Assembly: GCA_963796055.1 (NCBI GenBank)
Contig: CAWCKH010000003.1
Span: forward strand, 544,001-608,000
Direction: 5' to 3'
Source: an uncultured delta proteobacterium
GTDB taxonomy: Bacteria; Myxococcota; Myxococcia; Myxococcales; Myxococcaceae
DNA length: 64,000 nt
Below, piece after piece: positions 17,549 through 38,210 of the stretch. The stretch's first letter is position 1. The number at the start of each line of letters is the position of its first letter. The notes under the pieces are model-generated. The model ran no database searches. It was not told where the DNA came from and saw nothing but the letters and a program-made list of their open reading frames with translations. Position numbers and translations under genes: made by a program.

Positions 17549-17646
17549 CGAGGGAATCGTACCGGTCCAGTCGAAATCGCAGAAGGGGATCTTCAGAGGG
17601 ATCCGATGGTCGGTATCCACTCGTGGGCTCTTCCGAAGGAGGACCC

Positions 17647-18305: not shown

Positions 18306-18312
18306 GCCGGCC

Positions 18313-18695: not shown

Positions 18696-19016
18696 ATGCC
18701 CAAGTTCCTGATCAAGGCGAGTTACACGACGGAAGGCGTCAAGGGGCTGCTCAAGGACGGCGGTTCGGGCCGGCGCAACGCGGTCGAGAAGATGGTCAAG
18801 AGCGCGGGCGGGAAGCTGGACGGCGTCTGGTTCGCGTTCGGCGATGACGACGTCTTCGTGCTTGGTGACCTGCCCGACAACGCGAGCGCGGCCGCCGTCA
18901 GCCTGGCGGTGTCCGCGAGCGGCGCTGTGCGCTGCAGCACGACCCCACTCCTCACCATCGAGGAGATGGACGCGGCGACGAAGAAGTCGGTCGACTACCG
19001 CAAGCCCGGCGCCTGA
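18696..19016 (+). CDS. GYD domain protein
   Basis: MPKFLIKASYTTEGVKGLLKDGGSGRR, WFAFGDDDVFV and TTPLLTIEEMD; GAGGAG RBS. Confidence 0.9.
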   Translation: MPKFLIKASYTTEGVKGLLKDGGSGRRNAVEKMVKSAGGKLDGVWFAFGDDDVFVLGDLPDNASAAAVSLAVSASGAVRCSTTPLLTIEEMDAATKKSVDYRKPGA

Positions 19017-19177: not shown

Positions 19178-20575
19178 GTGCCCACAGACCGCTCCCGGAG
19201 ACCTGATTCCACTCCAGGTGCGACAGGCGCGGCCACACAGTCTCTGCCCTGGCTTGACCGCCTGCTCCGCCCCTTCGCCGACGTGCGGGCCGGTGAAGCG
19301 GTCACCGCCCTCGTCCTCGCCGCGACCATCTTCCTGCTGCTGACGGCCTACTACCTGCTCAAGGTCATCCGCGAACCGCTCATCCTCCTCGGCGGTGGGG
19401 CAGAGGTGAAGGCCTATGCCGCGGCGGGTCAGGCGCTGCTGCTCCTCCCCGTCCTCCGTGCCCACGGCGCCATCGCCCGGCGGGTGAACCGGCTGACGCT
19501 CATCGCCGCGGTGCTGCTGTTCGTCGCCTCCAACCTCCTGGTCTTCTCGCTGCTGCTCCGCGCCAACGTCCCCATCGGGCTGCCGTTCTATCTGTGGGTG
19601 GGCACGTTCAATTACCTCCTGGTGGCGACGTTCTGGAGCTTCGCCAACGACGTGTACACGCCGGAGCAGGGGAAGCGGCTGTTCGCCATCGTCGGGATCG
19701 GGAGCTCCGTCGGGGCTCTGGCCGGCGCGGCGCTGGCGAGCTTCCTGCTGCGCCATCTGGCGCCGTTGCATCTGATGCTGGCCTCGGCCGCGCTGCTCGC
19801 CGCGGCGCTGGTTCCCTTCGCCTGGGTCAACGCGCAGCGGCGGTGCTGTCCGAAGGACCGCGGACGCGAGGCGCACCGGGACGAGCCGCTGACCGGAGCG
19901 GGCGGGTTCCAGGCTCTCCTCCAGGACCGGTATCTGCTCCTGATCGGTCTGATCACCATCCTCGCCAACTGGGTGACCAACTCCGGCGAGTACGTCCTGG
20001 ACAAGACGCTGATCGAGGTGGCGCACGCCAGCGCTTTCAGCGCCGCAGACGCCGGCCGCTTCGTCGGTCAGTTCAAGGCCCAGTACTTCTGGTGGGTCAA
20101 CGTCCTGGCCGTCGTGGGGCAGTTCTTCGTGGTCTCGCGCGTCCTGAAGTACCTGGGCGTGGGCGGCGCGCTGCTGGTGCTCCCCCTGGTGTCCATGGCC
20201 GGCGCGACCACCATCGTCCTCTTCCCCGTTCTGGCGCTCATCCGGACGGCGAAGATCGCGGAGAAGGGCGTCGAGTACTCCCTCGAGACCACGGCGGTGA
20301 ACGCGCTCTACCTCGTGGTCTCCCGAGACGCGAAGTACAAGGCGAAAGCGGTGATCGACACCTTTCTGGTCCGCGCCGGGGACGTCTGCGCCGCCGCTTC
20401 CATCTGGATCGGGACCCACCTCGGGGTCAGGACCTACGGGTTCGCCGCGGTCAATGTCCTGCTGACCGCGATCTGGGTCTTCGTGGCCTGGCAGATCCGC
20501 GCTCTGCACCATGCCCGGACCGGAGCCATCGAGTCGGCCGCGATTCCCGGCGCGGCGCCGGTGGCCTCGGCATGA
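19178..20575 (+). CDS. Npt1/Npt2 (TLC, ATP/ADP translocase-like) MFS nucleotide transporter
   Basis: AYYLLKVIREPLIL, FWSFANDVYTPEQGKRLF and EYSLETTAVNALYL..SRDAKYKAKAVIDTFLVRAGD; about 12 TM. Confidence 0.85.
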   Translation: MPTDRSRRPDSTPGATGAATQSLPWLDRLLRPFADVRAGEAVTALVLAATIFLLLTAYYLLKVIREPLILLGGGAEVKAYAAAGQALLLLPVLRAHGAIARRVNRLTLIAAVLLFVASNLLVFSLLLRANVPIGLPFYLWVGTFNYLLVATFWSFANDVYTPEQGKRLFAIVGIGSSVGALAGAALASFLLRHLAPLHLMLASAALLAAALVPFAWVNAQRRCCPKDRGREAHRDEPLTGAGGFQALLQDRYLLLIGLITILANWVTNSGEYVLDKTLIEVAHASAFSAADAGRFVGQFKAQYFWWVNVLAVVGQFFVVSRVLKYLGVGGALLVLPLVSMAGATTIVLFPVLALIRTAKIAEKGVEYSLETTAVNALYLVVSRDAKYKAKAVIDTFLVRAGDVCAAASIWIGTHLGVRTYGFAAVNVLLTAIWVFVAWQIRALHHARTGAIESAAIPGAAPVASA

Positions 20576-23280
20576 GCGAACCGTCCCAGACGCCCGCGCT
20601 CCCCATGCGCCGGGCTCTCCCCTTCGCCGTGCTGCTCTTCCTCCTGGTGGCGGCGCACGGACTGCTGGAGACCGCGCGCGACGGGCTCTTCCTGACCGAG
20701 CAGCCGGTGACCCGCCTCCCCTGGCTGTACCTCGGGGTCACGGCGGGCGTGCTCGTCCTCACCCCCCTTCAGCGTCGCCTCTGGAGCGGCCATAGCCGCA
20801 TCGCCCTGCCCCTGACCCTGGCCGCCTCCGGAGCGGTGACCCTGGCCTTCTGGCTGGGAACCCGCTCGCACAGCGCGGTGCTCGCGTTCTACGTCTGGAC
20901 CGCGCTGTTCTCCTCGCTGGTCTTCGTCCAGTTCTGGCTCACCGCGGACGAGGCGTTCGGCGTGACCCAGGCCAAGCAGAGCTTCGGGTTCATCGCCGCC
21001 GGGGGGCTGGTGGGGGCCGTCTCCGGGAGTGCGCTGGCCAGGCTGGTGCTCGGCTACGCCGATCCACGGCTGCTGCTGCTGATCTCGGTGGCCCTGACCT
21101 TGGGCGCCGCGGGGCTGGGCTACGCCCTGGTCCGATCCTGCGCCGTCGGCGAGGCCAGCGAGCCGGAGATGACGGTGACCAGCGCGGTCCCCGGCTACAT
21201 GCGCGGCGATCCCTATCTGCGATTGCTGGCAGTCCTGGCCCTCCTGACCGCGGCCAGCGCCACCCTGATCGATTATCTGTTCAAGGCCTCGGTGTCGGCC
21301 GGAGTGTCCCCGGAGCGAATTCCCCGGCTGGTCGCCAACGTGTACCTGGGGCAGAACACGCTCGCGCTGCTGGTCGAGCTGGTGGTGGTGAAGACCCTGC
21401 TGCAGAGCACCGGCGTGACCCGCAGCCTCGCCCTGTTGCCCCTGGTCGTGCTGGGAGGCGCGTCGGGGTATGCGGTGGGCGGCGGCCTGGCGGTCGTGCT
21501 TGGTCTGAAGATCCTCGACGGCGGTCTCCGGCCCTCGCTCTACCGGGTGGGGACCGAGCTGCTCTTCCTTCCCATCGGCGCGGCGGTACGTCGGGTGATC
21601 AAGCCCTCCATCGACACGCTCGGGCAGCGCGGAGGGCAGGCACTGGTCTCGCTGCTTCTCCTCGGCGTGCCGCAGCTTCCGGACCGGGCGCAGATGGGCG
21701 CGGTCACCATTCTCTTGACGACCGTCGCCGTCGCCTGGGTCGGCGCCGCCCGGGTGCTGCGGCGCCATTACCTGAACCGTTTCCAGGAGGAGCTCGGCGC
21801 GGGCCGGGTCCAGATGGAGGGGGTGGGGACCCTGGACCTGGCCTCGGCGGAGATCCTGGTGAACGGGCTCGGCTCGTCCAACACCCGCGAGGTGCTGACC
21901 GCCCTGGACGTGCTCGCCCGTTCCAGGCGGCTCGGTCTGATTCCGGCGCTCATCCTCTATCATCCCGAGCCATCGGTGGTGCGCGCCGCGCTGGCGCACT
22001 TTTCCGGGTCGCGCCGGACGGACGTCGACGCGCTCCTCCCCTTCCTCTTTCGCCATCCCGACGAGGAGGTCCGCGCCGCAGCAGCGGAGCGGTGGCTCGA
22101 GGCGGGGAACACGCCGGAGGAGCTGCGCCGGGCGCTCGAGGACTCCAGCCCCCGGGTCCGTGCCGCGGCACTGGTCGCGCTCTCTTCCATCGACTCCGGC
22201 AAGGACGCACGAGAGGCCATGGCCCGCATCGTCGGCGATGGGCTCCCCGAGGCGCGGCGCGCGCTGGCCTGGGCCATCGCCAACGCCCCCCGCCCGGACC
22301 TGCTCCCGACGGTGGAGGGTCTCTTCCTCCGGGGAGACATCGAGACGCGCCGCGAGCTGCTCCGTGCCGCCCGCGGGTTACCCACCCCTCCGCCGGAGTT
22401 CGTCTCCGGGTTGATCTCCCTCCTTGCCCATCCGGTACTCCGCCCGGGAGTGAGGGAGGCGCTGGTCTCGGTGGGCGCGCCCGCCCGAGAGCAGCTGGAG
22501 GCGCTCCTTCTCGCTCGAGATACGCCCTTTCCAGTCGACCGGGAGCTGCCGGCGACGCTGGCTCGATTCCCTGCAGAAGCGGCGGCTCCCCCGTTGCTCC
22601 GGCGCCTGGTCCAGCCGCGCGGGGGGCTGTCCCGTTTCCGGTCCCTCCGCGCCTTGAACCAGCTCCGCCGCAGCAATCCCCGGCTGGCGCTGGATGAGGC
22701 CGCGCTCACCTCTGCCCTCGAGCTGGAGGTCGCCTCCGTCCTGAAGAACCGAGCGCTCCGGTTGACGGGACTGCGGATGGGCATTACCCCGGAACGGGAG
22801 AACCCCGCGGGGATGCTGCTGCTGGATCTCCTTCTGGACAAGGAGCGCCTGGCCGTCGAGCGCGTCTTCCGCGTGCTCGCGCTGCTCTTCCCCGGTGGAC
22901 GCCTGGAGCAGGTCTATCTCGGGGCGCGCTCGGAGAGCCCGCGGCGGCGCGACGCAGCCCGGGAGGTGCTGGTCGAGCTGCTCCGGGCGCCCTGGCGAGA
23001 GCGGGTGGTGATGCTCCTCGAGCCGGACCAGGTGGATCCCGCGACGGTCCAGCGGCTGCTCGGCCCCCAGCCGACGACCGAGAGCTTCGTCACCGCGCTC
23101 CTCGCCCAGAGCAGCGAGGTGGTCCGGCTCCTGACGCCCTGTCTGGCCCATGCCGAAGGCTGGGTGAGCACGGTGCCCAGGCTTCGCGCCGGTCCGCGCT
23201 GTGGCGATGCGGAGGCCGCGGCCCTCGCCGACCAGGCCATCCAGCAGCTGGAGCGACGGGCGGAGCAGCGCCATGGCTGA
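20572..23280 (+). CDS. Npt/TLC-like MFS transporter fused to HEAT repeats
   Basis: 3' part of ORF 19594..23280; LLETARDGLFL, QFWL..QAKQSFGFI and ELLFLPI..IKPSIDT..QRGG; then repeated HP.PSVVRAAL, HPDEEVRAAA and DSSPRVRAAAL units. Confidence 0.85.
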   Translation: MSEPSQTPALPMRRALPFAVLLFLLVAAHGLLETARDGLFLTEQPVTRLPWLYLGVTAGVLVLTPLQRRLWSGHSRIALPLTLAASGAVTLAFWLGTRSHSAVLAFYVWTALFSSLVFVQFWLTADEAFGVTQAKQSFGFIAAGGLVGAVSGSALARLVLGYADPRLLLLISVALTLGAAGLGYALVRSCAVGEASEPEMTVTSAVPGYMRGDPYLRLLAVLALLTAASATLIDYLFKASVSAGVSPERIPRLVANVYLGQNTLALLVELVVVKTLLQSTGVTRSLALLPLVVLGGASGYAVGGGLAVVLGLKILDGGLRPSLYRVGTELLFLPIGAAVRRVIKPSIDTLGQRGGQALVSLLLLGVPQLPDRAQMGAVTILLTTVAVAWVGAARVLRRHYLNRFQEELGAGRVQMEGVGTLDLASAEILVNGLGSSNTREVLTALDVLARSRRLGLIPALILYHPEPSVVRAALAHFSGSRRTDVDALLPFLFRHPDEEVRAAAAERWLEAGNTPEELRRALEDSSPRVRAAALVALSSIDSGKDAREAMARIVGDGLPEARRALAWAIANAPRPDLLPTVEGLFLRGDIETRRELLRAARGLPTPPPEFVSGLISLLAHPVLRPGVREALVSVGAPAREQLEALLLARDTPFPVDRELPATLARFPAEAAAPPLLRRLVQPRGGLSRFRSLRALNQLRRSNPRLALDEAALTSALELEVASVLKNRALRLTGLRMGITPERENPAGMLLLDLLLDKERLAVERVFRVLALLFPGGRLEQVYLGARSESPRRRDAAREVLVELLRAPWRERVVMLLEPDQVDPATVQRLLGPQPTTESFVTALLAQSSEVVRLLTPCLAHAEGWVSTVPRLRAGPRCGDAEAAALADQAIQQLERRAEQRHG

Positions 23281-24229
23281 GATCGATCCACCCATCCTCG
23301 CCGAGCGCGTGCTCCGGCTGAGCCGCTCCGCACCGTTCGACATGATGGCCGCCGATCAGCTGGCGCTGCTGGCCGCAGCGGGCCGGGAGCAAGCCTTCGC
23401 CGGCCGCACGGTGCTGGTCCACGCCGGAGAACGTTCCTCGGCGCACTTCCTTCCGCTGGCAGGCCGACTGCGGCTCATCTCGGACGGGCGGGAGCTCCCC
23501 TGGCCCCAGCTTCACTCCGGGCTGGGAGCGCTGTCGGTGCTCGGTCGGGGCGTCTTCCCCGCGGACCTGGTGGCCGACCCCGGCACGGTGCTCCTGGTGC
23601 TCGATCAGGACGCCTTGGTCGCGGTCCTCGAGGAGCACGGGCGGCTGAGCCGGGCCGTGCTCCGGGTGCTGGCCTCCAAGCTGCAAACTGTCCGCGGGAT
23701 GATGGCCCCTCGACGGACTCCTCCTCCCGCGGGGGTGAGCGCGCGCCTGGACCTGGTCTCGCGGATGTTGCTCCTCCGCGAGGCTCTGGGTCTCGGCGCG
23801 GACGGGATGGCAGTGGTGGCCCGCCTGGCCCGGGTGGTCCACGCGCGGCGCTTCTCCCCGGGAGCAGCGCTCTGGGCGCCGGACCAGGTGGCGGACCTGG
23901 TCATCGTCGTCGAGGGCAGCCTCCGGCTCCACGGGAACGGGGCAGCAGAGCGGAACACCGAGCGGGGGGAGGCCCTGGGCCTGGTGGAGTCGGTGGCCGG
24001 CGTGCCGATGGAGGAGCAAGCGAAGGCCGTCGAGGAGACGACCGCGGTCGTCCTCAGTCACCCCGAGCTGACCGAGGCCATCGACGACGACGACCCGCTG
24101 TGCTTCGAGCTCATCCGCAGCTTTGCCGCGCAGATCTGGGCCGTGGTTCTCGCCGCGGAAGCGAGAGGCACCCCGTTCACCACCGTCGGCGCACCGGGGA
24201 GACCGCCGGCTACGACGTTGGCAGGATAA
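23273..24229 (+). CDS. Tandem cyclic-nucleotide-binding (cNMP/Crp-like) domain protein without HTH
   Basis: ERVLRLSRSAPF..QLALLA and a second repeat SRMLLLRE..LVIVVEGSLRL..GEALGLVES. Confidence 0.7.
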   Translation: MAEIDPPILAERVLRLSRSAPFDMMAADQLALLAAAGREQAFAGRTVLVHAGERSSAHFLPLAGRLRLISDGRELPWPQLHSGLGALSVLGRGVFPADLVADPGTVLLVLDQDALVAVLEEHGRLSRAVLRVLASKLQTVRGMMAPRRTPPPAGVSARLDLVSRMLLLREALGLGADGMAVVARLARVVHARRFSPGAALWAPDQVADLVIVVEGSLRLHGNGAAERNTERGEALGLVESVAGVPMEEQAKAVEETTAVVLSHPELTEAIDDDDPLCFELIRSFAAQIWAVVLAAEARGTPFTTVGAPGRPPATTLAG

Positions 24230-24284: not shown

Positions 24285-25760
24285 ATGCGGCCGAACATCT
24301 GCCTCCGGGTCTCTCGATCCTCCGGCCCGAGATGGGTGGGGCTCATGCTGGGCCTCGTCGTGGCCGAGGTGGCGCGGGCCGCCGAGGGTGCCGACGCAGG
24401 GACTCCGGTCGCGCCGGGCATCGCTGCCGCACCGGATGGCGGGGTTCCTCAGGCCGAGGTCCTGGCGCCGGACGGTGGGAGCAGCGAAGCGGCGCAAGAC
24501 GCTCCCCGGCGCGAGCGCGCGGACTTTCGAGGGCAGTCCGATCCGCCGCCGACGACGGGGGACGTGCTGATCTGGGTTCCCCGGGTGATCCTCCTCCCCG
24601 CCTATCTGGTCACCGAGTACGTCGTCCGGGTCCCCCTCGGCGCGCTGTCCACCACCGCGGAGAAGAACGACTGGCCGCAGTGGCTGTTCAACTTCTTCGC
24701 CTTCGGCCCCGAGCACCGGGGCGGCATCTTCCCCACCTTCTTCCTCGATTTCGGGCTGCGTCCGAGCATCGGGCTGCACTTCTGGTGGAACGACACCTTC
24801 GTCCAGAACAACAAGCTCACCGCCAATGCCTCGTGGGGCGGATCGAACTGGATCACCCTGGCGGTCGGGGATCGCTACACCTTCGACGAGAAGAACTCGA
24901 TCGCCATCGGAGCCCGATGGGCCCGACGGCCGGACAACCTGTATTACGGCATCGGGCCGGAGATCGACACCGACCTCCGCACCCGCTACGGCACCGACCT
25001 CATCTCGGGGGGCATCGAGTACGTCCACTCCCAGCGGGGCCTGGAGTTCAAGGTCGGGGCCCGCCTGGACCGGACCGTCTTCCGGAGCTACTCGTGCTGC
25101 AGCGATCCGACCCTGGCGCAGAGGGTGGAGCGAGGAGAGCTGCCCGCTCCTCCGGGATTCGAGGAGAACACCACCGCCGCCTCCATTCCCTTCCGGGTGG
25201 TCCTCGACACCCGTCCACCCGGGCCGATGCACCGGAGCGGCATCCGCACCGGCCTGGAGGTGGCCCCGGCCGTGGACGTGACCCGCGGGTTCGATCGCTC
25301 CTGGCTTCTCTACGGAGCGACGGTCCAGGGGTTCTGGGACATGACCGGCACCGGCCGGGTGCTCGGGCTCGGAGCATGGGCGGCCTTCGTCGACCCCCTG
25401 GGGAGTCAGCCAGTCCCGTTCACCAACTACGTGACGCTCGGAGGCGCTGACCCGTTTGCCGGATTCGTCACCGGGTCTCTGCGCGACCGGAGTGCCGTGG
25501 CGCTGCAGCTCTCCTACAACTGGCCGGTCTTCGTCTTCCTCGACGGAGTCGCCGCGGTCTCGTTCGGGAACGTCTTCGACGCGCATCTCCGAAACTTCGA
25601 CTTCGACCTGCTTCGCATGTCGGCAGAGCTCGGGGTCCGGACCCGAGGATCGGGCACCAGCTCGTTCCAGCTCATCATCGGGGTAGGCACGGAGACGTTC
25701 CGCCAGGGCTTCGCGCTGGCCACCTTCCGCTTCTCCTTCGGGGTCACCTATGGGCTCTAG
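24285..25760 (+). CDS. Omp85/BamA-TamA-like outer-membrane beta-barrel protein
   Basis: Signal peptide, alternating aromatic beta-strands, YYGIGP, TLGG..FAGF..GSLRDRSA (resembles the Omp85 L6 motif) and terminal FRFSFGVTYGL. Confidence 0.7.
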   Translation: MRPNICLRVSRSSGPRWVGLMLGLVVAEVARAAEGADAGTPVAPGIAAAPDGGVPQAEVLAPDGGSSEAAQDAPRRERADFRGQSDPPPTTGDVLIWVPRVILLPAYLVTEYVVRVPLGALSTTAEKNDWPQWLFNFFAFGPEHRGGIFPTFFLDFGLRPSIGLHFWWNDTFVQNNKLTANASWGGSNWITLAVGDRYTFDEKNSIAIGARWARRPDNLYYGIGPEIDTDLRTRYGTDLISGGIEYVHSQRGLEFKVGARLDRTVFRSYSCCSDPTLAQRVERGELPAPPGFEENTTAASIPFRVVLDTRPPGPMHRSGIRTGLEVAPAVDVTRGFDRSWLLYGATVQGFWDMTGTGRVLGLGAWAAFVDPLGSQPVPFTNYVTLGGADPFAGFVTGSLRDRSAVALQLSYNWPVFVFLDGVAAVSFGNVFDAHLRNFDFDLLRMSAELGVRTRGSGTSSFQLIIGVGTETFRQGFALATFRFSFGVTYGL

Positions 25761-26433
25761 AGAGCAGGATGTCACGCAGCCCCAGCACCCAGGCCAGCGA
25801 GGCGAGCCAGGCGCCGAGAACGTCGGTGGGGTGATGCACGCCCAGATACAGCCGCGAACCGCTGATCACCGCGGTGAAGGCCGCTCCGCCGAGGATCGCC
25901 ACCCATCGGTAGCGCGTGTTCCAGGCGAGCACGGCCACCGAGACCGCGAGCGCCATCGAGCCCATGGCGTGGCCGCTGGGGAAGCTGAAGCTCGTCTCCG
26001 GGGCGGGAGAGGGCCAGAGCACGGGGCGATCGCGTCCGAAGAGCCGCTTGGTCGCATCGCTCAGCAACCACGACCCGAGCATCGAGAAGGCGAAGAAGGA
26101 GAACCGCGCCGCCTCCCGTCGGATGAGCAGCCACAGCGCCAGGAGCACCGAGACGGGAATCACTCCGTACCAGGTGCCGACCCGCGAGGCGGTCAGCATC
26201 ACCCGGTCGGCCAGCGGGGAGGAATGGGCGTGGAGCCAGGTGAGCACCGCCACATCCCAGGGGGGTGGCTGGCGGTGAACCACCTCCCGCGCCAGGATGG
26301 CGAAGAAGCAGAGCGGGACCAGCACCCCCAGGAACAGGGCGAGGATTCGCCGCCGATGGCGGTTGAGCAGCTGGCCCAGGAAGTCCAGGAAGCGGCGACT
26401 CCCGGTCGCGGCCGGAGAATGCGAGGCATCCAC
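25744..26433 (-). CDS. PAP2 family membrane phosphatase (undecaprenyl-PP phosphatase-like); start approximate
   Basis: KRLFGRDRP, SFPSGHAM and SRLYLGVHHPTDVLGAW. Confidence 0.9.
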   Translation of the reverse strand: MDASHSPAATGSRRFLDFLGQLLNRHRRRILALFLGVLVPLCFFAILAREVVHRQPPPWDVAVLTWLHAHSSPLADRVMLTASRVGTWYGVIPVSVLLALWLLIRREAARFSFFAFSMLGSWLLSDATKRLFGRDRPVLWPSPAPETSFSFPSGHAMGSMALAVSVAVLAWNTRYRWVAILGGAAFTAVISGSRLYLGVHHPTDVLGAWLASLAWVLGLRDILLSRAHR

Positions 26434-28080
26434 GGGAACTGGATAGCGCGCTGGGCCTCCCTGGCGCTGCTGGAATGCGTGGCGGCCTGTGCTCCGAGCA
26501 TTCGACAGTTCTCCACGAAACCGGTGGTCCTCAAGGACGACGATCGCCGTCCGTTCCCGGGACCGATCGAGGAGTCGTTCTCCCCGCTGGGATGGGATGC
26601 AGCGGACCACATCCTCTTCCGACCGCTGAGCCACGCCTTCCTGCTCGAGCAGGGCTCCCCGGCGATCGACGTCAACGCGCTCGACGAGGTCCCGGACTCC
26701 AGCTGGTACGTGAACCGCATCAGCCGCCGGCCCATGTCCCCGGAGGAGATCGCCCGCGGAGCCTGTCACCGAACGGCGCCCGAGGAGGAGCTCCCGTGGA
26801 CGGTGGTGGGGGCCAAGCTGAACGGGGCCAATCCGGGGTTCCAGATCAAGACCGCTGCCGGGGCGAACTACCTCCTCAAGTTCGACGACCCCAAGCAGTT
26901 CGAGCGGGCCTCCACCGGAGACGTGGTGGGCAGCCGGCTCTACTACGCGGCCGGTTTCCAGGTGCCCTGCAACCGGGTGGTGTACCTCCGGAGCACCGAC
27001 CTGGTCGTCTCCGACAAGCCGCCGAAGGATGCCTCGAAGGTGGTCACCCGCGAGACGATCGACGAGATGCTGAAGTTCGCGCAGCAGGAGACGAACGGGA
27101 CGTACCGTGCGGTGGCCAGCGAGTTCATCCCCGGAAGACCGAACGGACCCTGGAACTACAGCGACCGCCGGGGGGATGATCCCAACGACCGGATCGACCA
27201 CCAGGACCGCCGCGAGCTTCGCGGCTCACGGGTGCTGGGGGCGTGGATCAACCACCACGACGCGCGCTCCCAGAACACCCTCAACACCTGGATGACCACC
27301 AGCGAGGGAATGGGGTACCTGGACCACTACGTCATCGACTGGGGCGACACCCTGGGAGGCCTGTCGTATGGCGACGAGTTCTCCCGACGGGTGGGCTACA
27401 CGTACTACATCGACTTCGGGCAGATTGGCGCCGACTTCATCACCTTCGGCATCCCCCAGCGGCCCTGGGAGCGCGCGAAGTACGGGCCGGCCGGGGAGAT
27501 CTTCGGCTACTTCAACGACACCGACTTCGTCCCCGAGGACTGGCATGTCGGCTACCCCAACGTCGCCTTCTCCGCGATGGAGGAGCAGGACGCCGCGTGG
27601 ATGGCGCGGATCATCGCCCGCATCGACGAGACCGCGATCGACCTGGTGGTGGACCAGGCGCGGCTCAGTGCGCCCATCGCCAGCTCGGAGCTGAAGCGGA
27701 TCCTGAAGGGGCGACGGCTGCGGATCCTCCAGCGTTACCTGACGCGGGTCTCGTCCTTGACCGATCCCGAGCTCGGGCAGGACGGGGTCACGTTGTGCGT
27801 GCACGACCGGGCGGAGGAGGCCGGCCTCGGGGCCGGTCCCGCGCCGGGCGTTCGACTCTGGTACTCGCCGACGGCCTCCCTGGGACTCGAGGTCGACCGT
27901 CCGGAGCCGGCCAAGCTGTGCGTGGTGCTGCCCAGGGGGGAGACCGGCTACCGGATCGTCGACCTGGTCACCGGCCGCCCCGGACAGGGACCGCTGCGGC
28001 TGCACCTTGCCGAGCAAGGCGGAGTCCTCCGTGTGGTGGGCGTCGAGCGCCCGGAAGGCAATCCCCCTCCCGGGAGCTGA
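26419..28080 (+). CDS. Hypothetical lipoprotein with atypical protein-kinase-like motifs
   Basis: Lipobox-like VAAC; KLNGANPGF, YLLKFD..ERAS, WINHHDARSQNT and YVIDWGDTLG. Confidence 0.7.
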   Translation: MRGIHGNWIARWASLALLECVAACAPSIRQFSTKPVVLKDDDRRPFPGPIEESFSPLGWDAADHILFRPLSHAFLLEQGSPAIDVNALDEVPDSSWYVNRISRRPMSPEEIARGACHRTAPEEELPWTVVGAKLNGANPGFQIKTAAGANYLLKFDDPKQFERASTGDVVGSRLYYAAGFQVPCNRVVYLRSTDLVVSDKPPKDASKVVTRETIDEMLKFAQQETNGTYRAVASEFIPGRPNGPWNYSDRRGDDPNDRIDHQDRRELRGSRVLGAWINHHDARSQNTLNTWMTTSEGMGYLDHYVIDWGDTLGGLSYGDEFSRRVGYTYYIDFGQIGADFITFGIPQRPWERAKYGPAGEIFGYFNDTDFVPEDWHVGYPNVAFSAMEEQDAAWMARIIARIDETAIDLVVDQARLSAPIASSELKRILKGRRLRILQRYLTRVSSLTDPELGQDGVTLCVHDRAEEAGLGAGPAPGVRLWYSPTASLGLEVDRPEPAKLCVVLPRGETGYRIVDLVTGRPGQGPLRLHLAEQGGVLRVVGVERPEGNPPPGS

Positions 28081-28092: not shown

Positions 28093-29064
28093 CTACCACC
28101 TCCCGGCGATGCTGATGCCCATCATCCCCGGGCCGATGGCCGGGGTGACGACGGTGGGCGTCTGTCCCTTCGCCACCGCGACGTGCAGCGCGGGAATGGC
28201 CCACCCGATGGTTCCGCCGAGCACCGCGCCGGCGATCACGTCGGTGGCCCAGTGGCGGTCGGCCATGATCCGCAGAACGCCGGTGAGGGTGGCCACCCCG
28301 ACCGTGGCCGGACAGGCCACGGCGCCCCATCCGGTGTGCGTGGTGTCGAGGTAACCGTGGTGGAAGCACTCCAGCGCCACCGCGGCGAAGACCAGCGTGG
28401 TGTGGCCGCTGGGGAACGACTGGTACTTGCTCCCGGTCTGGCAATCCTGGAGGTTGGGGTTGGTGACGCACTCCTGGACGAAGGGCCGCTCCCGGGCGGT
28501 GAGGTGCTGGAGCGAAAGGGCGGCGAAGGTGGCGGTGAGCAGCGTCTCGGCGTCCAGCACCATCAATCGCCAGGCGATGTCCCACCGCTCGTGCTCCACG
28601 CCGGCCACCAGGGTGGCGTTGATCAGCGGGAAGGCCGAGAGGGCAAAGGCGCCGACGTCGCTGAGGGTCGACGCCGTCGCCCGGCCGTTCTCGCTGGAGA
28701 GGCGGAGCCCGCCACGCACCCAGTCGTCGAAGCCATTCCCGGCCCACTTGGGTTCCGTGGGAGCGGACACGCCGAACTGGACGACGCTCAGCGCGCCGAC
28801 CAGTCCCCCGGTGGCCACGATGTCCCAGACCCCGACGGTGGGCAGTCCGTGCGCGGGCCAGGGCGGTGAAGCCAGGCTCGGGAGAGCGGCGGTGGCACCC
28901 GGAGGGGCGGCGTTCCCGGGAGCGGGCGGAACCGCCGGGGCGGGGACGACGGTCTCCGGGGCGGCGGCCGGAGGCGGAGGCTGCGGCGCCGTTTCGCCCG
29001 ACGACCGGGGCACGGCCGAGGCCTGGGCCATCACCGCGGCGACCACCACCGCCAGCGCATTCAT
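28093..29064 (-). CDS. PAP2 family phosphatase with Pro/Ala-rich N-terminus
   Basis: TARERP, SFPSGHT and LRIMADRHWATDVIAG. Confidence 0.88.
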   Translation of the reverse strand: MNALAVVVAAVMAQASAVPRSSGETAPQPPPPAAAPETVVPAPAVPPAPGNAAPPGATAALPSLASPPWPAHGLPTVGVWDIVATGGLVGALSVVQFGVSAPTEPKWAGNGFDDWVRGGLRLSSENGRATASTLSDVGAFALSAFPLINATLVAGVEHERWDIAWRLMVLDAETLLTATFAALSLQHLTARERPFVQECVTNPNLQDCQTGSKYQSFPSGHTTLVFAAVALECFHHGYLDTTHTGWGAVACPATVGVATLTGVLRIMADRHWATDVIAGAVLGGTIGWAIPALHVAVAKGQTPTVVTPAIGPGMMGISIAGRW

Positions 29065-29498
29065 CACGCGGGTCTTACCAGAACCGCCACCACGGCTTTC
29101 CCGGACTCGGGGCGGCGGCGGGCGCGGGAATCGCATCGCCAACGAATGACGAGGATCGAGCCAGGGCCTCGTGGCGGGACGTGCCCTCCCCGACGCCTCC
29201 GTGGCACGCCATCTGCCCCGTCCTCCATGCGAGTTGCAGGGCCGGGCAGACATCCGGGTCGCCACGGCACGGGCTCGAGGCTGTGACAAATTCGTTACCT
29301 GCCCGACCGATCCGACAAATCTGTCTGGCGGAGTGCGTCACGACCTCCAACTGGCCGCGGGATACCCGACCGTCAAGTTTCCGACCGGTCGGCAGGTGCG
29401 GACACTTTCGTTCCCTTTCGACTCGATTCCTACCTTTTCGTCTGATGGTCGGAATGTCAGCCCACCGCGCTCCTCAGGGCGGCGCGGCACGCTGTGCG

Positions 29499-29553: not shown

Positions 29554-30795
29554 ATGACCAAAAGGGGCCTGGGGCTCACGGCATTGGCTTGTGCTCTCAC
29601 CTTCACGGCGTCGAGCGCGCGCGCGGAGGAGACGATCAAGGTCGGAATCCTCCACTCCCTCTCCGGGACGATGGCGATCAGCGAGACGTCGCTGAAGGAC
29701 GTGGCGCTGATGACCATCGACGAGATCAACGCCAAGGGGGGCGTGCTGGGAAAGAAGATCGAGCCGGTGGTGGTGGACCCCGCCTCCAACTGGCCGCTGT
29801 TCGCCGAGAAGGCCCGCCAGCTGCTCACCAAGGACAAGGTGGCCGCGGTCTTCGGGTGCTGGACCTCGGTCTCCCGCAAGTCCGTCCTCCCGGTGTTCGA
29901 GGAGCTGAACGGCCTGCTCTACTACCCGGTGCAGTACGAGGGCGAGGAGCTGAGCAAGAACGTCTTCTACACCGGAGCGGCCCCCAACCAGCAGGCGATC
30001 CCCGCGGTGGAGTACTTGATGTCCAAGGAGGGCGGCGGCGCGAAGCGGTTCTTCCTGCTCGGGACCGACTACGTCTACCCCAGGACCACCAACAAGATTC
30101 TCCGGGCGTTCCTGCACTCCAAGGGAATCACCGACAAGGACATCCAGGAGACGTACACGCCCTTCGGGCACAGCGACTACCAGACCATCGTCGCGCAGAT
30201 CAAAGCGTTCGGCGCAAGCGGGCACGCCGCCGTCGTCTCCACCATCAACGGCGACTCGAACGTCCCCTTCTACAAGGAGCTGGGCAACCAGGGCCTGAAG
30301 GCGACCGACATCCCGGTGGTCGCGTTCTCGGTCGGCGAGGAGGAGCTGCGGGGCATCGACACCAAGCCGCTGGTGGGCCACCTGGCCGCCTGGAATTACT
30401 TCATGTCGGTCAAGAACCCGGTGAACACCGCCTTCATCGCCCAGTGGAAGGCCTACGTGAAGAAGAACAACCTCCCCGGCGGTGACGCGCGCGTCACCAA
30501 CGACCCGATGGAGGCCACCTACGTCGGCATCCACATGTGGGCCCAGGCGGTGAAGAAGGCCGGGACCACCAAGGTGGACGCGGTTCGCGCCGCGATGAGC
30601 GGCCAGACCTTCGCTGCGCCCTCGGGCTTCACCTTGAAGATGGACGAGACCAACCACCACCTGTGGAAGCCGGTGATGATCGGCGAGGTGCAGGGCAACG
30701 GTCAGTTCTCGGTGGTGTGGAAGACCAGCAAGCCCGTCCGGGCGCAGCCCTGGAGCCCGTTCATCCCCGGCAATGAGAAGCGTGCCGAGCGCTGA
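29554..30795 (+). CDS. urtA: Urea ABC transporter substrate-binding protein
   Basis: IKVGILHSLSGTMAISE, FGCWTSVSRKSVLP and YPVQYEGEE; AAGGAG RBS. Confidence 0.97.
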   Translation: MTKRGLGLTALACALTFTASSARAEETIKVGILHSLSGTMAISETSLKDVALMTIDEINAKGGVLGKKIEPVVVDPASNWPLFAEKARQLLTKDKVAAVFGCWTSVSRKSVLPVFEELNGLLYYPVQYEGEELSKNVFYTGAAPNQQAIPAVEYLMSKEGGGAKRFFLLGTDYVYPRTTNKILRAFLHSKGITDKDIQETYTPFGHSDYQTIVAQIKAFGASGHAAVVSTINGDSNVPFYKELGNQGLKATDIPVVAFSVGEEELRGIDTKPLVGHLAAWNYFMSVKNPVNTAFIAQWKAYVKKNNLPGGDARVTNDPMEATYVGIHMWAQAVKKAGTTKVDAVRAAMSGQTFAAPSGFTLKMDETNHHLWKPVMIGEVQGNGQFSVVWKTSKPVRAQPWSPFIPGNEKRAER

Positions 30796-32386
30796 GCCGC
30801 GCCGTTTCCTCACTCTGCTGATCCTGCTCACGGCGGTCGCGGCCCGCGCTGGCGAGGCCGCCCCGCCCGAGCCACGTCCGGCCCCGAGCCTCGATGCCGC
30901 CACCCTGGACCGTCTGGTCAAACCGGAGTCTCGCGACGAGACCATCGCTTCCCTGGTGGAAGCGTCCGACGTGCACGCTCTGCCCGTCCTCCGGGCGCTC
31001 CTGGAGGGGAACCTCTACGTCGGCCAGACGGTGCTGGTCGACCAGGAGGGTACGCTCCAGGATGCGCTCACCGGTGCTCCGGCATCGGTCGACCGTGAGC
31101 AGCTGGAGCAGGTGACGATCAACAACCGGCTCCGGCGCAGCCTGGAACGGGCGGTGGCGGCCCTCTCCCTCTTCGAGGGCTCCCCGGCCGACCGACTCGC
31201 CGCCGCGCGGGTGCTCCAAGAGAATCCGGCCCCGGAGGTGCTCCCGGCGGTCCAGAAGGCGCTCGCCGGCGAGAAGGACCCCAGGGTGAAGGAGGCCCTG
31301 AGGGCGACCGCGGCGATGCTCGCCCTGGCCAGCGACGATCCCGCCCAGCGGCTCGCCGCCATCGAGGAGCTCCGGAAGGTCCACGCCAAACGGCAGCTGA
31401 TGCAGCGCCTCGAGGTGGAGCAGGACCCCACGGCGCTCGCCGCGCTCAAGGACGCGATCCGCGACGTGGACCACGCGCTGGAGCGCGCGGCGATGGTCGG
31501 GCTCCTCTTCTCCGGCCTCAGCCTGGGGAGCGTCCTGCTGCTCGCCGCGCTCGGCCTGGCCATCACTTTTGGATTGATGGGCGTCATCAACATGGCCCAC
31601 GGCGAGCTGCTGATGGTTGGCGCCTACGCCACCTGGCTGGTCCAGACGGCATTTCGGGGGTCTCACCACTTCGACTGGTACCTGCTGGCCGCGCTCCCGG
31701 CGTCCTTCCTCGCCGCGGCGCTGGTCGGCGCGCTGCTGGAGATCACCGTGGTGAGGAAGCTCTACGGCCGGCCGCTGGAGACGCTGCTCGCCACCTGGGG
31801 CGCGAGCCTGCTCATCATCCAGGCGGTGCGCGTGGCCTTCGGCGCCCAGAACGTGGAGGTCTCGAACCCCAGCTGGATGTCCGGCGGAGTCGCCCTGCTC
31901 CCGGACCTGGTCCTGCCCTGGAACCGCATCGTGATCCTCCTCTTCTCCGCCACCGTCCTGCTCGGGGTGTGGGCCCTGCTCACCCGGACCCGGCTGGGGC
32001 TCCTGGTCCGCGCGGTCACCCAGGACCGGCAGCGCGCCGCGGGGCTGGGCGTGCGGACGCCGCGGGTGGACCTGCTCGCCTTCGCCATCGGCTCGGGCAT
32101 CGCCGGGCTGGGCGGGTGCGCCCTCTCGCAGATTGGCAACGTGGGCCCCGAGCTCGGCCAGGGCTTCATCGTCGACTCCTTCATGGTGGTGGTGCTGGGA
32201 GGCGTGGGTCAGCTCGCGGGGACCACCATCGCCGCGGGGAGCCTGGGGGTGGTGAACAAGCTGCTCGAGCCCTGGGCCGGAGCGGTGATGGCGAAGATCG
32301 TCGTCCTGGTGTTCGTCATCGTTTTCATCCAGCGGCGCCCGCAGGGGCTGTTCGCGCTGCGCGGGCGGGCACTGGAGGAGGGGTGA
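30773..32386 (+). CDS. urtB: Urea ABC transporter permease
   Basis: GLAITFGLMGVINMAHGE, YGRPLETLLATWG and FIQRRPQGLF. Confidence 0.95.
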   Translation: MRSVPSAEPRRFLTLLILLTAVAARAGEAAPPEPRPAPSLDAATLDRLVKPESRDETIASLVEASDVHALPVLRALLEGNLYVGQTVLVDQEGTLQDALTGAPASVDREQLEQVTINNRLRRSLERAVAALSLFEGSPADRLAAARVLQENPAPEVLPAVQKALAGEKDPRVKEALRATAAMLALASDDPAQRLAAIEELRKVHAKRQLMQRLEVEQDPTALAALKDAIRDVDHALERAAMVGLLFSGLSLGSVLLLAALGLAITFGLMGVINMAHGELLMVGAYATWLVQTAFRGSHHFDWYLLAALPASFLAAALVGALLEITVVRKLYGRPLETLLATWGASLLIIQAVRVAFGAQNVEVSNPSWMSGGVALLPDLVLPWNRIVILLFSATVLLGVWALLTRTRLGLLVRAVTQDRQRAAGLGVRTPRVDLLAFAIGSGIAGLGGCALSQIGNVGPELGQGFIVDSFMVVVLGGVGQLAGTTIAAGSLGVVNKLLEPWAGAVMAKIVVLVFVIVFIQRRPQGLFALRGRALEEG

Positions 32387-33513
32387 GCACGGCCACCGCA
32401 GTCCTCCCCCCGTCGGCGATGATGCGGTCCGACCCCGGCCGCCGGCTCTACCCGCGGAAGGTCTGGGCGGTGATCCTCGCCGTCTACGGTGGGCTGGTGA
32501 TCGCGCTGCCGGCGCTCCACCTCCTGGTGCCGGCCAGCTCGCCGCTCCACCTCTCCGACTACACCGTCACCCTGGTCGGGAAGATCCTCTGCTACGCCAC
32601 GGTGGCCCTGGCGATGGACCTGGTCTGGGGCTACACCGGCATCCTCTCGCTGGGCCACGGGCTGTTCTTCGCCCTCGGCGGCTATGCGATGGGCATGTAC
32701 CTGATGCGGGCCATCGGCCGGGACGGCGTGTACGGCGACCCGGTGTTGCCCGACTTCATGGTGTTCCTCGACTGGAAGCACCTGCCCTGGTACTGGCTCG
32801 GCTCCAATCATTTCTTCCAGCAGGCACTCCTGGTGGTGCTGGTGCCGGCGCTCCTGGCCTTCGTCTTCGGCTGGTTCGCCTTCCGCTCCCGCATTCGAGG
32901 CGTCTACTTCTCGATCATCACCCAGGCGCTGACCTACGCAGCGATGCTGCTGTTCTTCCGGAACCAGACAGGGTTCGGGGGGAACAACGGCTTCACCGAC
33001 TTCAAGCGCATCCTCGGCTTCCCGCTGGCGAGCCCTCACACCCGGGTGGCCCTGCTGGTGCTCTCGGCCACCCTGCTTCTTTCGGTCCTGGTGCTCTGCC
33101 GGGCCCTGGTGCTGTCCAAGCTGGGTCGGGTACTCACCGCCATCCGCGACGCCGAGGACCGGGTGCGGTTCTGCGGCTACGACCCGGTGCGGTTCAAGCT
33201 CTTCGTCTGGACGCTCTCCGCGGCGATCTGCGGGATCGCCGGCGCGCTCTACGTGCCCCAGGTGGGCATCATCAACCCCAGCGAGATGTCCCCGGCCAAC
33301 TCCGTGGAGATCGCCATCGCCGTCGCGCTCGGCGGCCGGGGAACGCTGCTCGGCCCCATCCTCGGAGCCGCGCTGCTCCACGGCGCCAAGAGCGTGCTCA
33401 CCGTGGCCTTCCCCGAGCTGTGGCTGTTCGTGCTCGGGCTGTCGTTCATCGTGGTGACCCGCTGGTTGCCGCGCGGGGTGCTCGGGCTCTTCTGGAGGGA
33501 GGGCGGGTCGTGA
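32383..33513 (+). CDS. urtC: Urea ABC transporter permease
   Basis: MDLVWGYTGILSLGHG, GFGGNNGFTDFK and YVPQVGIINPSEM. Confidence 0.95.
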   Translation: MSTATAVLPPSAMMRSDPGRRLYPRKVWAVILAVYGGLVIALPALHLLVPASSPLHLSDYTVTLVGKILCYATVALAMDLVWGYTGILSLGHGLFFALGGYAMGMYLMRAIGRDGVYGDPVLPDFMVFLDWKHLPWYWLGSNHFFQQALLVVLVPALLAFVFGWFAFRSRIRGVYFSIITQALTYAAMLLFFRNQTGFGGNNGFTDFKRILGFPLASPHTRVALLVLSATLLLSVLVLCRALVLSKLGRVLTAIRDAEDRVRFCGYDPVRFKLFVWTLSAAICGIAGALYVPQVGIINPSEMSPANSVEIAIAVALGGRGTLLGPILGAALLHGAKSVLTVAFPELWLFVLGLSFIVVTRWLPRGVLGLFWREGGS

Positions 33514-34265
33514 ACCTCGACACCCCGGCCGGGCCCATCCTCTACTTGAGCGGGGTCACCGTCAGCTTCGATGGCTTCAAGGCCCTCGACTCGCTCAGCC
33601 TCATGGTGGAGCCGGGCGAGCTCCGCTGCATCATCGGACCGAACGGCGCGGGCAAGACGACGTTGATGGACGTCATCACCGGCCGCACCCGTCCGGACGC
33701 CGGCGACGTTCAGTACGGCGAGGCGCACGACCTCACCCGGATGTCCGAGGCGGAGATCGTCGACGCCGGCATCGGCCGCAAGTTCCAGAAGCCCACCATC
33801 TTCCGCGCCCACACGGTGTTCGAGAACCTCGAGCTATCGCTGAAGATGGACAAGCGGGTCCTCCCCACCCTGCGCGCCCGGCGCACGCCCGAGCAGGACG
33901 CGCGCATCGACGAGGTCCTCGGCCTCATCGGCCTCCGGGCGAAGGCCGGGGTCCGGGCGGATCTCCTCTCTCACGGCGAGAAGCAGTGGCTGGAGATCGG
34001 GATGCTGCTGGTGCTGGAGCCGGGGCTGCTCCTGCTGGACGAGCCGGTCGCCGGGATGAGCGACGAGGAGACCGAGCGGACCGGGGAGCTCCTCCGCTCG
34101 CTGGCGGGGAAACACTCACTGGTGGTGGTGGAGCACGACATGCACTTCGTCGACACCCTCGCCAGCAAGGTGACCGTGCTCCACGAAGGCCGCGTCCTGG
34201 CCCAGGGCTCCATGGACACGGTCCGGAAGGACCCCCGCGTCATCGACGTCTACCTGGGGCGCTGA
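33510..34265 (+). CDS. urtD: Urea ABC transporter ATP-binding protein
   Basis: GPNGAGKTT, GIGRKFQKP and LSHGEKQWLEIGM. Confidence 0.95.
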   Translation: MNLDTPAGPILYLSGVTVSFDGFKALDSLSLMVEPGELRCIIGPNGAGKTTLMDVITGRTRPDAGDVQYGEAHDLTRMSEAEIVDAGIGRKFQKPTIFRAHTVFENLELSLKMDKRVLPTLRARRTPEQDARIDEVLGLIGLRAKAGVRADLLSHGEKQWLEIGMLLVLEPGLLLLDEPVAGMSDEETERTGELLRSLAGKHSLVVVEHDMHFVDTLASKVTVLHEGRVLAQGSMDTVRKDPRVIDVYLGR

Positions 34266-34954
34266 TGCTGAGTGTGCACGGACTCGACCAGTACTACGGA
34301 GGGAGCCACACGCTCCGGGCGATCGACCTGGAGGTGCCGGCGGGGACCTGCACCGCCCTGCTGGGACGCAACGGGGTGGGCAAGACGACGCTCCTCCGCT
34401 GCCTGATGGGCGAGCTCCCGGTGAAGCGGGGCACGGTGCAGCTCGGTGGGGAGGAGGTCACCCGGCTTCCCTCCTACGAGCGGGCCCGTCTGGGCATGGG
34501 CTACGTGCCGCAGGGACGGGAGATCTTCTCCCGGCTGACGGTGGACGAGAACCTCAGCGTGGGCGAGTCGGCCGCCCGTGGCCCTACCATGCCCCGCGCC
34601 GAGCTGGAGGAGCTCTTCCCCATCCTCGGCACCATGCGGACCCGCCGCGGCGGCGACCTCTCGGGCGGTCAGCAGCAGCAGCTGGCCATCGCCCGGGCCC
34701 TCGTTTCGCGGCCGAGGCTCCTGCTGCTCGACGAGCCGACCGAGGGCATCCAGCCGTCCACCATCAAGGAGATCGGCCGTGTGCTCCGGGCGCTGCTGGA
34801 GCGGAACATGACCATCGTCCTGGTGGAGCAGTACCTGGACTTCGCCCTCGAGCTGGCCGAGCACTGCGCGGTCCTCTCCCGGGGGGAGATCGTCCTGCGG
34901 GGCCGCATCTCCGAGCTCGACCCCGCCCAGGTCAGGCGACACCTCTCGGTGTGA
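34265..34954 (+). CDS. urtE: Urea ABC transporter ATP-binding protein
   Basis: GRNGVGKTT, YVPQGREIF, LSGGQQQQLAI and DEPTEGIQP. Confidence 0.95.
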   Translation: MLSVHGLDQYYGGSHTLRAIDLEVPAGTCTALLGRNGVGKTTLLRCLMGELPVKRGTVQLGGEEVTRLPSYERARLGMGYVPQGREIFSRLTVDENLSVGESAARGPTMPRAELEELFPILGTMRTRRGGDLSGGQQQQLAIARALVSRPRLLLLDEPTEGIQPSTIKEIGRVLRALLERNMTIVLVEQYLDFALELAEHCAVLSRGEIVLRGRISELDPAQVRRHLSV

Positions 34955-35763
34955 TCCGCGCTACAAGGCACTCCATGGCTCGGGGCCACCTTGCCTTCCG
35001 GCAGGCCGGGACGGGAACGGCGGTGGAGACCGCGTACGCCGAGAGCCCGCTCCGGTTCCTCACCCCGCGCAACCACGGCAGCGCGGCCTGGGCCTACACC
35101 AGCACGCTGGGGGGAGGACTGGTCGACGGCGACCGGCTGGCACTGGAGATCTCGGTCGGCCCCATGGCGCGGGCCTTCGTCTCCTCGCAGGGCCCGACAC
35201 GGGTATTCCGCTCGTCCCGGGGTGCCGTCTCGGAGACGCTGGCCCGGGTGGACGAGGGCGGGGCGCTGGTGCTCGTCCCCGACCCGACGGCCTGCTTCGC
35301 CGGCGCCCGGTACACGCAACGCACCGAGGTGACGCTCGCGCCCGGTGCCTCGCTCGTGCTCTGGGAGGTGCTCTCCGCCGGACGAGAGCGCTGGGGCTTC
35401 ACCCGCTGCCAGAGCACGCTGCGCGTCATGCCCTTCCTCGACGAGCGCTGGCTGCTCGACCCGGAGCACGGTCCGCTCGAGGAGCGAATGGGCCGCTTCG
35501 GGGCCATCGGCACCTTGCTCCTGGTGGGGCCGCTGTTCTCCATCATTGCTGAGGCAATTCGCGCGCACGTCGAGGATGGCCCCGCGCGGCCGGGCGCGCC
35601 GCTGGTCGAGTCGGCCAGTCCGCTGCGCGACGGCGCGCTGGTGGTTCGCCTCGCCGCCCCCTCGGTGCAGCAGCTCGTGCAGCGGCTGCGCCACCACCTC
35701 GCCACCCTCCCCTCCCTGCTCGGGGACGACCCCTGGAGGCTCGATGCATCTGTCGCCGCGTGA
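34951..35763 (+). CDS. ureD: Urease accessory protein UreD/UreH
   Basis: [24 protein letters not shown] and FAGARYTQ. Confidence 0.9.
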
Positions 35764-38205: not shown

Positions 38206-38210
38206 CGCCC

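Follow-up and report, generated by a model that had tools for sequence, protein, structure and literature searches.

A stretch of 64,000 nucleotides from the genome of an uncultured member of the Myxococcaceae (contig CAWCKH010000003.1, positions 544,001 to 608,000; referred to here as the window) contains at 26419-28080 on the forward strand a single reading frame of 553 amino acids which is predicted to encode an exported lipoprotein with the fold of an atypical kinase. The protein belongs to a new family within the protein kinase superfamily that fails the sequence tests of each of the named families. Its gene is nearly always found beside one encoding an outer-membrane barrel of the Omp85 family and often near that of a nucleotide carrier. 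Even if the additional link to the carriers encoded upstream should fail, kinase and barrel would still stand as a new family whose partner is defined. More tentatively, and with a chance that falls a little short of even, the protein may act as a periplasmic kinase which works with the barrel on an envelope substrate and is fed by a carrier of the NTT family.

Coding region and sequence motifs

The guanine-cytosine (GC) fractions at the three codon positions of the kinase gene (0.67/0.48/0.90) follow the pattern of a real gene in a GC-rich genome. The frame stays open upstream to 25750. The resulting long frame of 776 amino acids (25750-28080) was rejected since its extra stretch is antisense to a gene encoding a PAP2 phosphatase (Pfam E 1e-18), and the start at or near 26419 was therefore accepted. 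A paralog in the same genome is 60% identical and likewise follows a barrel gene.

The original prediction, made from the DNA letters of this region, had named a lipobox-like VAAC followed by five motifs of atypical kinases, namely the glycine loop KLNGANPGF, a beta3-like lysine in YLLKFD, a helix-C-like glutamate in FERAS, a catalytic-loop-like HHDARSQN and IDWG as the equivalent of DFG. All of them are present in the frame, the five kinase motifs in the order given. The parts of the gene are as follows.

26419-28080 (+): gene of the exported atypical kinase-fold lipoprotein, 553 amino acids, unnamed family (sequence, model, fold search)
26419-26490 (+): signal peptide with the lipobox VAAC at its end (Cys24; sequence, cysteine column and N-terminal hydrophobicity in relatives)
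26815-26841 (+): Gly-rich loop K133-F141 (KLNGANPGF, residues 133-141) joining the first two strands of the N-lobe (alignment, model)
26878-26880 (+): beta-3 Lys154 (YLLKFD), the predicted ATP-binding lysine, which is Glu in one clade (alignment, model)
26902-26952 (+): helix-C region with E162 (FERAS) before the helix and D168 (D/E) within it (model, alignment)
27178-27222 (+): near-invariant family-specific motif D254-x-N256-D257-x3-H261-x2-R264-R265-x2-R268, a candidate substrate-binding or structural cluster (alignment)
27253-27276 (+): catalytic loop H279-x-D281-x4-N286 (HHDARSQN; alignment)
27337-27345 (+): DFG equivalent D307-W-G (IDWG), which is DFG in most relatives (alignment)
27751-28047 (+): C-terminal beta-sandwich, Ig/FnIII-like (model; fold search with middling Z scores of 6-7.4)

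Kinase fold and family affiliation

The predicted model (predicted local distance difference test 91.1, predicted template-modelling score 0.91) displays a two-lobed kinase fold. The top 15 matches among 48,161 representative solved chains were all kinases with Z scores of up to 14.8, the best non-kinase chain reaching 7.5; judged by this model, the protein almost certainly possesses a kinase fold. The matches comprise CtkA (Z 14.3, root-mean-square deviation (rmsd) 3.9 over 228 residues), Fam20C (Z 14.2, rmsd 4.2 over 260 residues), the Fam20 protein of Hydra (13.0), PI4KIIalpha (12.7), CotH (12.1), MavQ (10.7), actin-fragmin kinase (10.5), HipT (10.4) and HipA (10.3). The PI3/4K-, HipA-, CotH- and Fam20-like kinases, of which the layout had been called typical, are thus among the closest structural neighbours. 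Across this group, including Fam20B, the fold (Z 10-15, rmsd 3.7-5.0 over 209-262 residues) and the order of the catalytic residues are shared, whereas the window kinase is only 8-15% identical in sequence and without a sequence match in PDB, Pfam or NCBIfam. It differs from these kinases furthermore in its invariant DDPND..H..RR..R motif, its lipid anchor, its dedicated barrel partner and its C-terminal Ig-like domain, residues 445-543 forming an Ig/FnIII-like sandwich (Z 6-7.4).

Searches of the PDB with the protein and two profiles gave no significant match, the Pfam scan of the query yielded no family at E up to 1, and neither the NCBIfam scan nor the search of plasmid sequences returned a significant match. 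The Pfam cut-offs of CotH (PF08757), Fam20C (PF06702), PI3/PI4 kinase (PF00454) and HipA (PF07804, PF20613) were not reached. Among 59 relatives compared with Pfam only HipA_2 was detected, weakly, in 5 (best E 0.034), and the Atlas look-alikes (0.77-0.80) serve as leads only. An identity as a HipA toxin, a cytoplasmic kinase with an adjacent HipB-type antitoxin, was rejected because 123 of 124 relatives carry an export signal and no small regulator recurred nearby when neighbouring frames of at least 120 amino acids were clustered.

The protein search revealed 1,173 relatives in 7,998 scored candidates, and the 120 listed were all unnamed or "hypothetical", just as had been expected of standard annotation. 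Grouped at 50% identity, the matches of the profile search amount to 3,630 clusters, and 1,152 of these have E values of 1e-30 or better. In the GTDB at least 604 stretches matched; the locus counts given below refer to the best 78, of which 39 are at least 20 kb in length (the long loci). These 78 loci derive mostly from Myxococcota, with single records from Gemmatimonadota and Eisenbacteria, and the Atlas look-alike cluster of the kinase consists mostly of Acidobacteriota. Searches of the open-access literature listed no paper on the kinase family or the module; subscription papers and supplements, which lay outside this search, could name it.

Longer forms of the kinase include a protein of 1160 amino acids in which it is fused to a 600-residue region of no recognised kind (P0270), and one of 1170 amino acids which combines it with a MYXO-CTERM-like surface protein (P0269) and possibly represents a read-through, as an internal signal peptide is retained. 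A search aimed at longer fused forms returned only two proteins, neither with a barrel, and counts as weak evidence.

Conservation of the catalytic residues

Conservation was assessed in 148 diverse sequences, namely the query and the 150 best representatives of the 50% identity clusters less three that were left out. Lys154 is conserved in 135 of 143, D281 in 143 of 148, N286 in 140 of 148 and D307 in 145 of 148 sequences, and all four are jointly present in 131 of 143, their roles being assigned from the order in which they occur and from the predicted secondary structure rather than from an atom-level superposition. These residues correspond to K72, D166, N171 and D184 of PKA, which serve as criteria for protein kinase-like proteins (PMC9758233). 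Judging from this conserved set it is likely that the protein carries out a real phosphotransfer. Neither of the two outcomes named beforehand as refuting the original prediction, a structure unlike that of kinases or a lack of conservation of the K/D/N/D residues, was obtained.

The Gly-rich loop is conserved as well (K133 in 125/139, G136 in 136/140, G140 in 130/141), and D307 is followed by Phe in 119 of the 148 sequences, which makes the motif of the family a genuine DFG. The assignment of the helix-C glutamate stood only in part. The FERAS motif exists, but E162 is probably not the acid of the ion pair: it lies just N-terminal to the predicted helix 163-178, and 112 of 142 relatives have an acid at this position. 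D168 (D or E in 126/143) is located inside this helix at a spacing which presumably matches that of the HipA and CotH motifs, and is more likely to be the equivalent of PKA E91.

The top invariance in the family is found in D254, N256, D257, H261, R264, R265 and R268, together with R230, H303 and D391; R264, R265 and R268 are each present in 363 of 363 non-gap positions of a redundant alignment. The ordered motif pattern occurred in none of 20,000 shuffles and in two of 10,729 long frames of the genome (the kinase gene and its paralog only), which is a weak control given that the pattern was composed after viewing the family and fits only 54 of 124 members. The real test is the structure.

Export and lipid anchor

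The N-terminus of the kinase shows the features of a Sec/SPII lipoprotein with a charged n-region, a hydrophobic h-region and the lipobox Cys, its h-region being atypical (LLECVAAC). Of 63 close relatives 60 share Cys24, as do 101 of 124 diverse ones, and a simple lipobox rule was passed by 69 of 99 scorable relatives. A hydrophobic N-terminus occurs in 123 of the 124 diverse relatives as compared to 79 of 938 internal control windows. Export is hence better conserved than lipidation, and relatives without the Cys mostly carry ordinary signal peptides as judged by eye. That the protein is exported, based on these N-termini, is hardly in doubt, and the extracytoplasmic location proposed for it appears to be a trait of the whole family.

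The Omp85 barrel as constant partner

The kinase gene is preceded and followed in the window by the following genes; the barrel, the NTT carriers and the phosphatases among them had not figured in the original prediction.

19178-20575 (+): stand-alone nucleotide carrier of the NTT/TLC family with Asp at the Lys527 position (Pfam, PDB profile, alignment)
20572-23280 (+): NTT-HEAT fusion whose carrier domain is divergent (Pfam, alignment)
23273-24229 (+): protein with two cyclic-nucleotide-binding domains (Pfam)
24285-25760 (+): outer-membrane barrel of the Omp85 family, POTRA-less but provided with conserved helices at its N-terminus, which is the constant partner of the kinase (Pfam, model, neighbours)
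25744-26358 (-): PAP2 membrane phosphatase between barrel and kinase, start uncertain (Pfam)
28093-29067 (-): gene running convergently to that of the kinase, for a PAP2 phosphatase whose N-terminus resembles a signal peptide (Pfam, sequence)

The barrel is encoded near the kinase in 68 of the 78 loci and in 38 of the 39 long ones, its gene lying upstream or downstream of that of the kinase or converging on it. When 301 genomes sampled from the phylum were examined, with only 4-5 candidates scored per genome, the kinase was present in 24 genomes (counted at E below 1e-100, with 6 weak partial matches dropped), the barrel in 26 and both in 23. Here a barrel lies no more than 6 kb away from 44 of 49 kinase copies, and of 49 barrel matches 46 are near a kinase. 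One protein (P0142) is a fusion of kinase and barrel without a signal peptide in between, its barrel matching that of the window at E 7e-45. A correlation between the distances of kinases and barrels (Spearman 0.60) was discounted as it is explained by shared descent. From the gene pairing it appears highly likely that kinase and barrel share a function, and a physical contact between them is somewhat more probable than not.

Pfam Omp85 was detected in 36 of 59 relatives of the barrel. The model of the barrel resembles BamA/TamA (E 1e-11) and contains no POTRA domain. The insertases BamA and TamA are characterised by the lid-lock motifs RGW/Y and FxDxG (PMC11358297). In the barrel family the lid motifs are partial: the lid Arg is found in 28 of 59 relatives and is missing from the window copy, which furthermore has VGNVF where FxDxG is expected. 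An identity as a BamA/TamA insertase was rejected on account of the absent POTRA domains and these only partly kept motifs.

Nucleotide carriers and the cyclic-nucleotide-binding protein

The operon starts with the stand-alone carrier, followed by the NTT-HEAT fusion and the gene of the cyclic-nucleotide-binding (cNMP) protein. The stand-alone carrier is assigned to the NTT/TLC family by PF03219 (32.9 bits versus a cut-off of 21) and by profile matches to the plastid and chlamydial NTT1 (PDB 9j3j and 9j3n, E 5e-18 and 1e-26). Carriers occur in 40 of the 78 loci (37 stand-alone, 22 fused) and in 25 of the 39 long ones, cNMP genes in 14 of the 78. The close subfamily of the stand-alone carrier was detected in 19 of the 301 genomes, 17 of which encode a kinase of the window type. 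The window genome possesses two copies each of kinase, barrel, carrier, NTT-HEAT fusion and cNMP gene, the second five-part set being dispersed over 45 kb.

A long insertion in the stand-alone carrier splits the match in two within one reading frame in Sorangium (loci L069, L071, L073 and L080) and in the genomes G108, G123 and G126. A more distant NTT subfamily, which is common in these genomes, carries R-G-x-D at the Lys527 motif (L097:8355-9638, L098:7817-9106); its genes are flanked by an aminotransferase and an epimerase-like gene, with neither kinase nor barrel.

Phosphatases and a clade with altered lysine

At 25744-26431 the minus-strand PAP2 gene lies head to head with the start of the kinase gene, an arrangement otherwise found only in the loci L014-L016. 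Transcription of the upstream operon may continue through this antisense gene into that of the kinase. In four divergent loci the neighbours are of the calcineurin-like or Tat-PhoD type. Ser/Thr kinases near 20 and histidine kinases near 16 of the 78 loci were set aside as presumed myxobacterial background.

In one clade (21 of 364 sequences of a redundant set, among them P0050, P0074, P0078 and P0086) Lys154 is replaced by Glu, and the catalytic motifs read HYDTG(E/D)N(N/Q) and DWND. In its 11 metagenome loci (L104-L114) the gene is translationally coupled to the barrel, which is directly upstream in 8, the other 3 being without upstream DNA; a PAP2 gene, to which there is often coupling as well, follows directly downstream in 4. 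From its sequence this clade is a possible pseudokinase or has an altered active site.

A second family of kinase-motif/Omp85 proteins

The two genomes with a close-subfamily carrier that lack the window-type kinase (G143 and G283) encode directly upstream of this carrier a fusion of 860-890 amino acids whose C-terminus is of the Omp85 type and whose N-terminal domain shows the kinase-type motifs VGxG, DWDRHxxQ and EDRD. The same type of carrier thus accompanies two different kinase-barrel types. The second family is large (1,328 matches) and kinase-like only by its motifs and by Atlas leads of 0.75-0.77, and its homology to the window kinase was not established by profile comparison (probability 25%). 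It also forms the middle (36% identity) of a Fulvitalea "metallophosphoesterase" of 1,226 amino acids, between the phosphoesterase and a barrel-like C-terminus, so that all three, phosphatase, kinase-like domain and barrel, are here united in a single protein.

Fusions of this domain (DWDRHxxQW, DRD) to Omp85 are located at L092:9689-12352, L093:1656-4232 and L116:4816-8496. The neighbours of the metallophosphoesterase-barrel protein of Bacteroidota, whose kinase-motif middle is unannotated, include a nucleotide cyclase and a gene of the Pycsar effector family.

Proposed mechanism and alternative explanations

The protein, predicted to be a lipid-anchored periplasmic kinase of the structural group of Fam20, CtkA, PI4K and CotH, would phosphorylate a substrate of the cell envelope together with the Omp85 barrel. 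The linked NTT-family carrier would supply the nucleotide phosphate donor, the neighbouring PAP2, calcineurin-like or PhoD phosphatases would take the phosphate off, and the NTT-HEAT fusion and the cNMP protein would regulate this cycle from the cytoplasm. That the carrier delivers the donor outward is inferred with slightly less than even confidence. A lipid or glycan head group is our tentative candidate for the substrate and is slightly favoured over a protein, which would be only a little less likely as a target, since the enzyme is membrane-anchored and PAP2 is the commonest phosphatase neighbour.

A number of observations weigh against this proposal or limit it. The fold cannot name the substrate because protein, sugar and lipid kinases tie in score among the structural neighbours. 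No carrier is visible in 38 of the 78 loci, the close carrier subfamily is missing in 7 of the 24 kinase genomes, and only 10 of 24 carriers of this subfamily lie within 10 kb of a kinase. Co-occurrence with carriers in the broad sense means little at the genome level as 219 of the 301 genomes (including G187) have them. Phosphatases are found in only 18 of the 78 loci (14 PAP2, 4 calcineurin-like), and the Lys-to-Glu clade retains the barrel with no carrier in its 11 loci. The kinase-barrel fusion forms a single-member cluster, and since the loci belong mostly to Myxococcota and the relatives are not independent, the counts overstate the number of events. The characterised NTTs, moreover, import ATP (PMC5381601).

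The residues of the carrier point in the same direction. In NTT1 the key residues are K155, E245, E385 and K527, the last being linked to triphosphate transport (PMC4256464), and the mutant K527E is unable to bind ATP (PMC3306366). When positions were counted by hand on the printed alignment (offset 84), only E385 of these canonical translocase residues was found to be kept, along with the basic pair of the first transmembrane segment. The Lys527 position is Asp in 30 of 30 sequences, Gly takes the place of Glu245, and the K155 position is occupied by a small residue with a Lys one turn earlier; the carrier domain of the NTT-HEAT fusion has diverged still further from NTT1. Canonical ATP/ADP exchange by the carrier is therefore doubtful, given that Lys527 is replaced and that K527E abolishes binding. 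Its other conserved lysines K78 and K359 might compensate.

The import by characterised NTTs (PMC5381601) would instead fit a system of nucleotide uptake or sensing in which the barrel admits nucleotides or phosphorylated compounds to the periplasm, the phosphatases trim them and the carrier imports them in the usual direction. The lipoprotein with the kinase fold would then serve to bind, capture or sense such compounds, with no need of a supply from inside. A carrier without the ATP-specific lysine would agree with a diphosphate or another substrate, exported phosphatases of three unrelated types stand beside some copies, and the Lys-to-Glu clade suggests that catalysis is not always required. 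However, the full catalytic set in 131 of 143 relatives goes beyond the need of a binding protein, and no other nucleotide-salvage family recurs among the clustered neighbours, so that we regard this explanation as rather unlikely. The same clade, with its normal gene context, and the fact that the family-specific D/H/R cluster is more invariant than the catalytic residues could also suggest that the fold serves another chemistry or a scaffold. Kinase folds are reused for other reactions in SelO and SidJ, and the protein might be a pseudokinase, an AMPylase-like enzyme or an ATP-driven subunit of the barrel, for instance powering a transfer across the membrane. This seems improbable, as K, D, N and D in most members follow one another in the order and at the distances that are canonical, and as the phosphatase neighbours fit a cycle of phosphorylation.

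The strict one-to-one pairing and the fusion would also be expected if the barrel moved the kinase to the surface or outside, in the manner proposed for PlpD-type or two-partner systems, where it would use ATP present outside the cell such as that set free by lysed prey. Secreted kinases lead the list of structural neighbours, the kinase has a C-terminal Ig-like domain, and a barrel without POTRA and with partial lid motifs (Arg in 28/59) is unlikely to be an ordinary BamA. On the other hand, it is POTRA domains that recognise two-partner cargo and the barrel has none, its model resembles BamA/TamA in the fold search, and the inner-membrane carrier in 25 of the 39 long loci would be left unexplained. 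Export of this kind thus appears unlikely, and with similarly low confidence the exported protein would be an ecto-kinase like CotH or CtkA acting on surface or foreign targets.

Other features of the window

Downstream of the module the region 29554-39545 contains a urea ABC transporter and a urease cluster, of which Pfam supports the binding protein only, the rest being deduced from the translations; the gamma and beta subunits of the urease are apparently fused. Upstream, 17623-18200 has a lipoprotein-like start that is interrupted in frame by a stop at about 17995, after which sequence of similar appearance continues in another frame, and is possibly a broken gene. Two small coupled genes at 14208-14866 resemble by eye a toxin-antitoxin pair of the Phd/YefM-RelE type. 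The GC content is 0.64-0.68 at 7000-19000 as compared to 0.70-0.78 in most of the window, the low-GC stretch stopping just before the module.

Relation to known systems and significance

POTRA-less Omp85 barrels of the related types "noNterm" and "Metallo" were described by Heinz and Lithgow in 2014 (PMC4104836). The window barrel likewise lacks POTRA, and the Fulvitalea protein has the layout of the "Metallo" type, whose fused kinase-motif domain is a family separate from the window kinase; the available text of this account makes no mention of a kinase. The patatin-Omp85 proteins of the PlpD type are also enzymes tied to an Omp85-type barrel (PMC4104836), whereas in the window the enzyme is a different one and usually a separate lipoprotein, the barrel has no POTRA and nucleotide carriers are linked. 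We regard the module as a variant of the enzyme-linked Omp85 systems that is split and bears a kinase. NTT-HEAT proteins with an adjacent gene for a cyclic-nucleotide-binding domain were described, without a function being given, by Major, Embley and Williams in 2017 (PMC5381601), and 20572-24229 of the window is exactly this arrangement. Neither "kinase" nor "Omp85" is mentioned in the available text of that paper, to which the window adds the stand-alone carrier, the barrel and the exported kinase.

Cultured Sorangium strains hold kinase, barrel and carrier together (L069, L071, L073, L080), and the module is therefore experimentally tractable.

Fam20, CotH and CtkA act outside the cytoplasm, and the family described here, with its gene neighbours, suggests that some bacteria may carry out phosphorylation there as well. 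ATP is generally held to be absent from the periplasm, so that a kinase which is exported with its catalytic residues intact depends on some donor of phosphate, for which the linked NTT carrier is a concrete candidate source. It is possible, though doubtful, that the module represents a widespread undescribed envelope system with an inner-membrane carrier run outward to bring ATP or another NTP into the periplasm, a barrel-docked kinase, reversing phosphatases, control by cyclic nucleotides and at least two kinase-like families in the same slot, one of them the unrecognised middle domain of the "Metallo" Omp85 proteins of Bacteroidota. If the supply of the donor by the carrier holds, it would assign a function to three orphan groups, namely to the NTT carriers of free-living bacteria, to the POTRA-less and "Metallo" Omp85 barrels and to a kinase family of thousands of clusters, and would provide a bacterial counterpart to kinases of the secretory pathway such as Fam20C.

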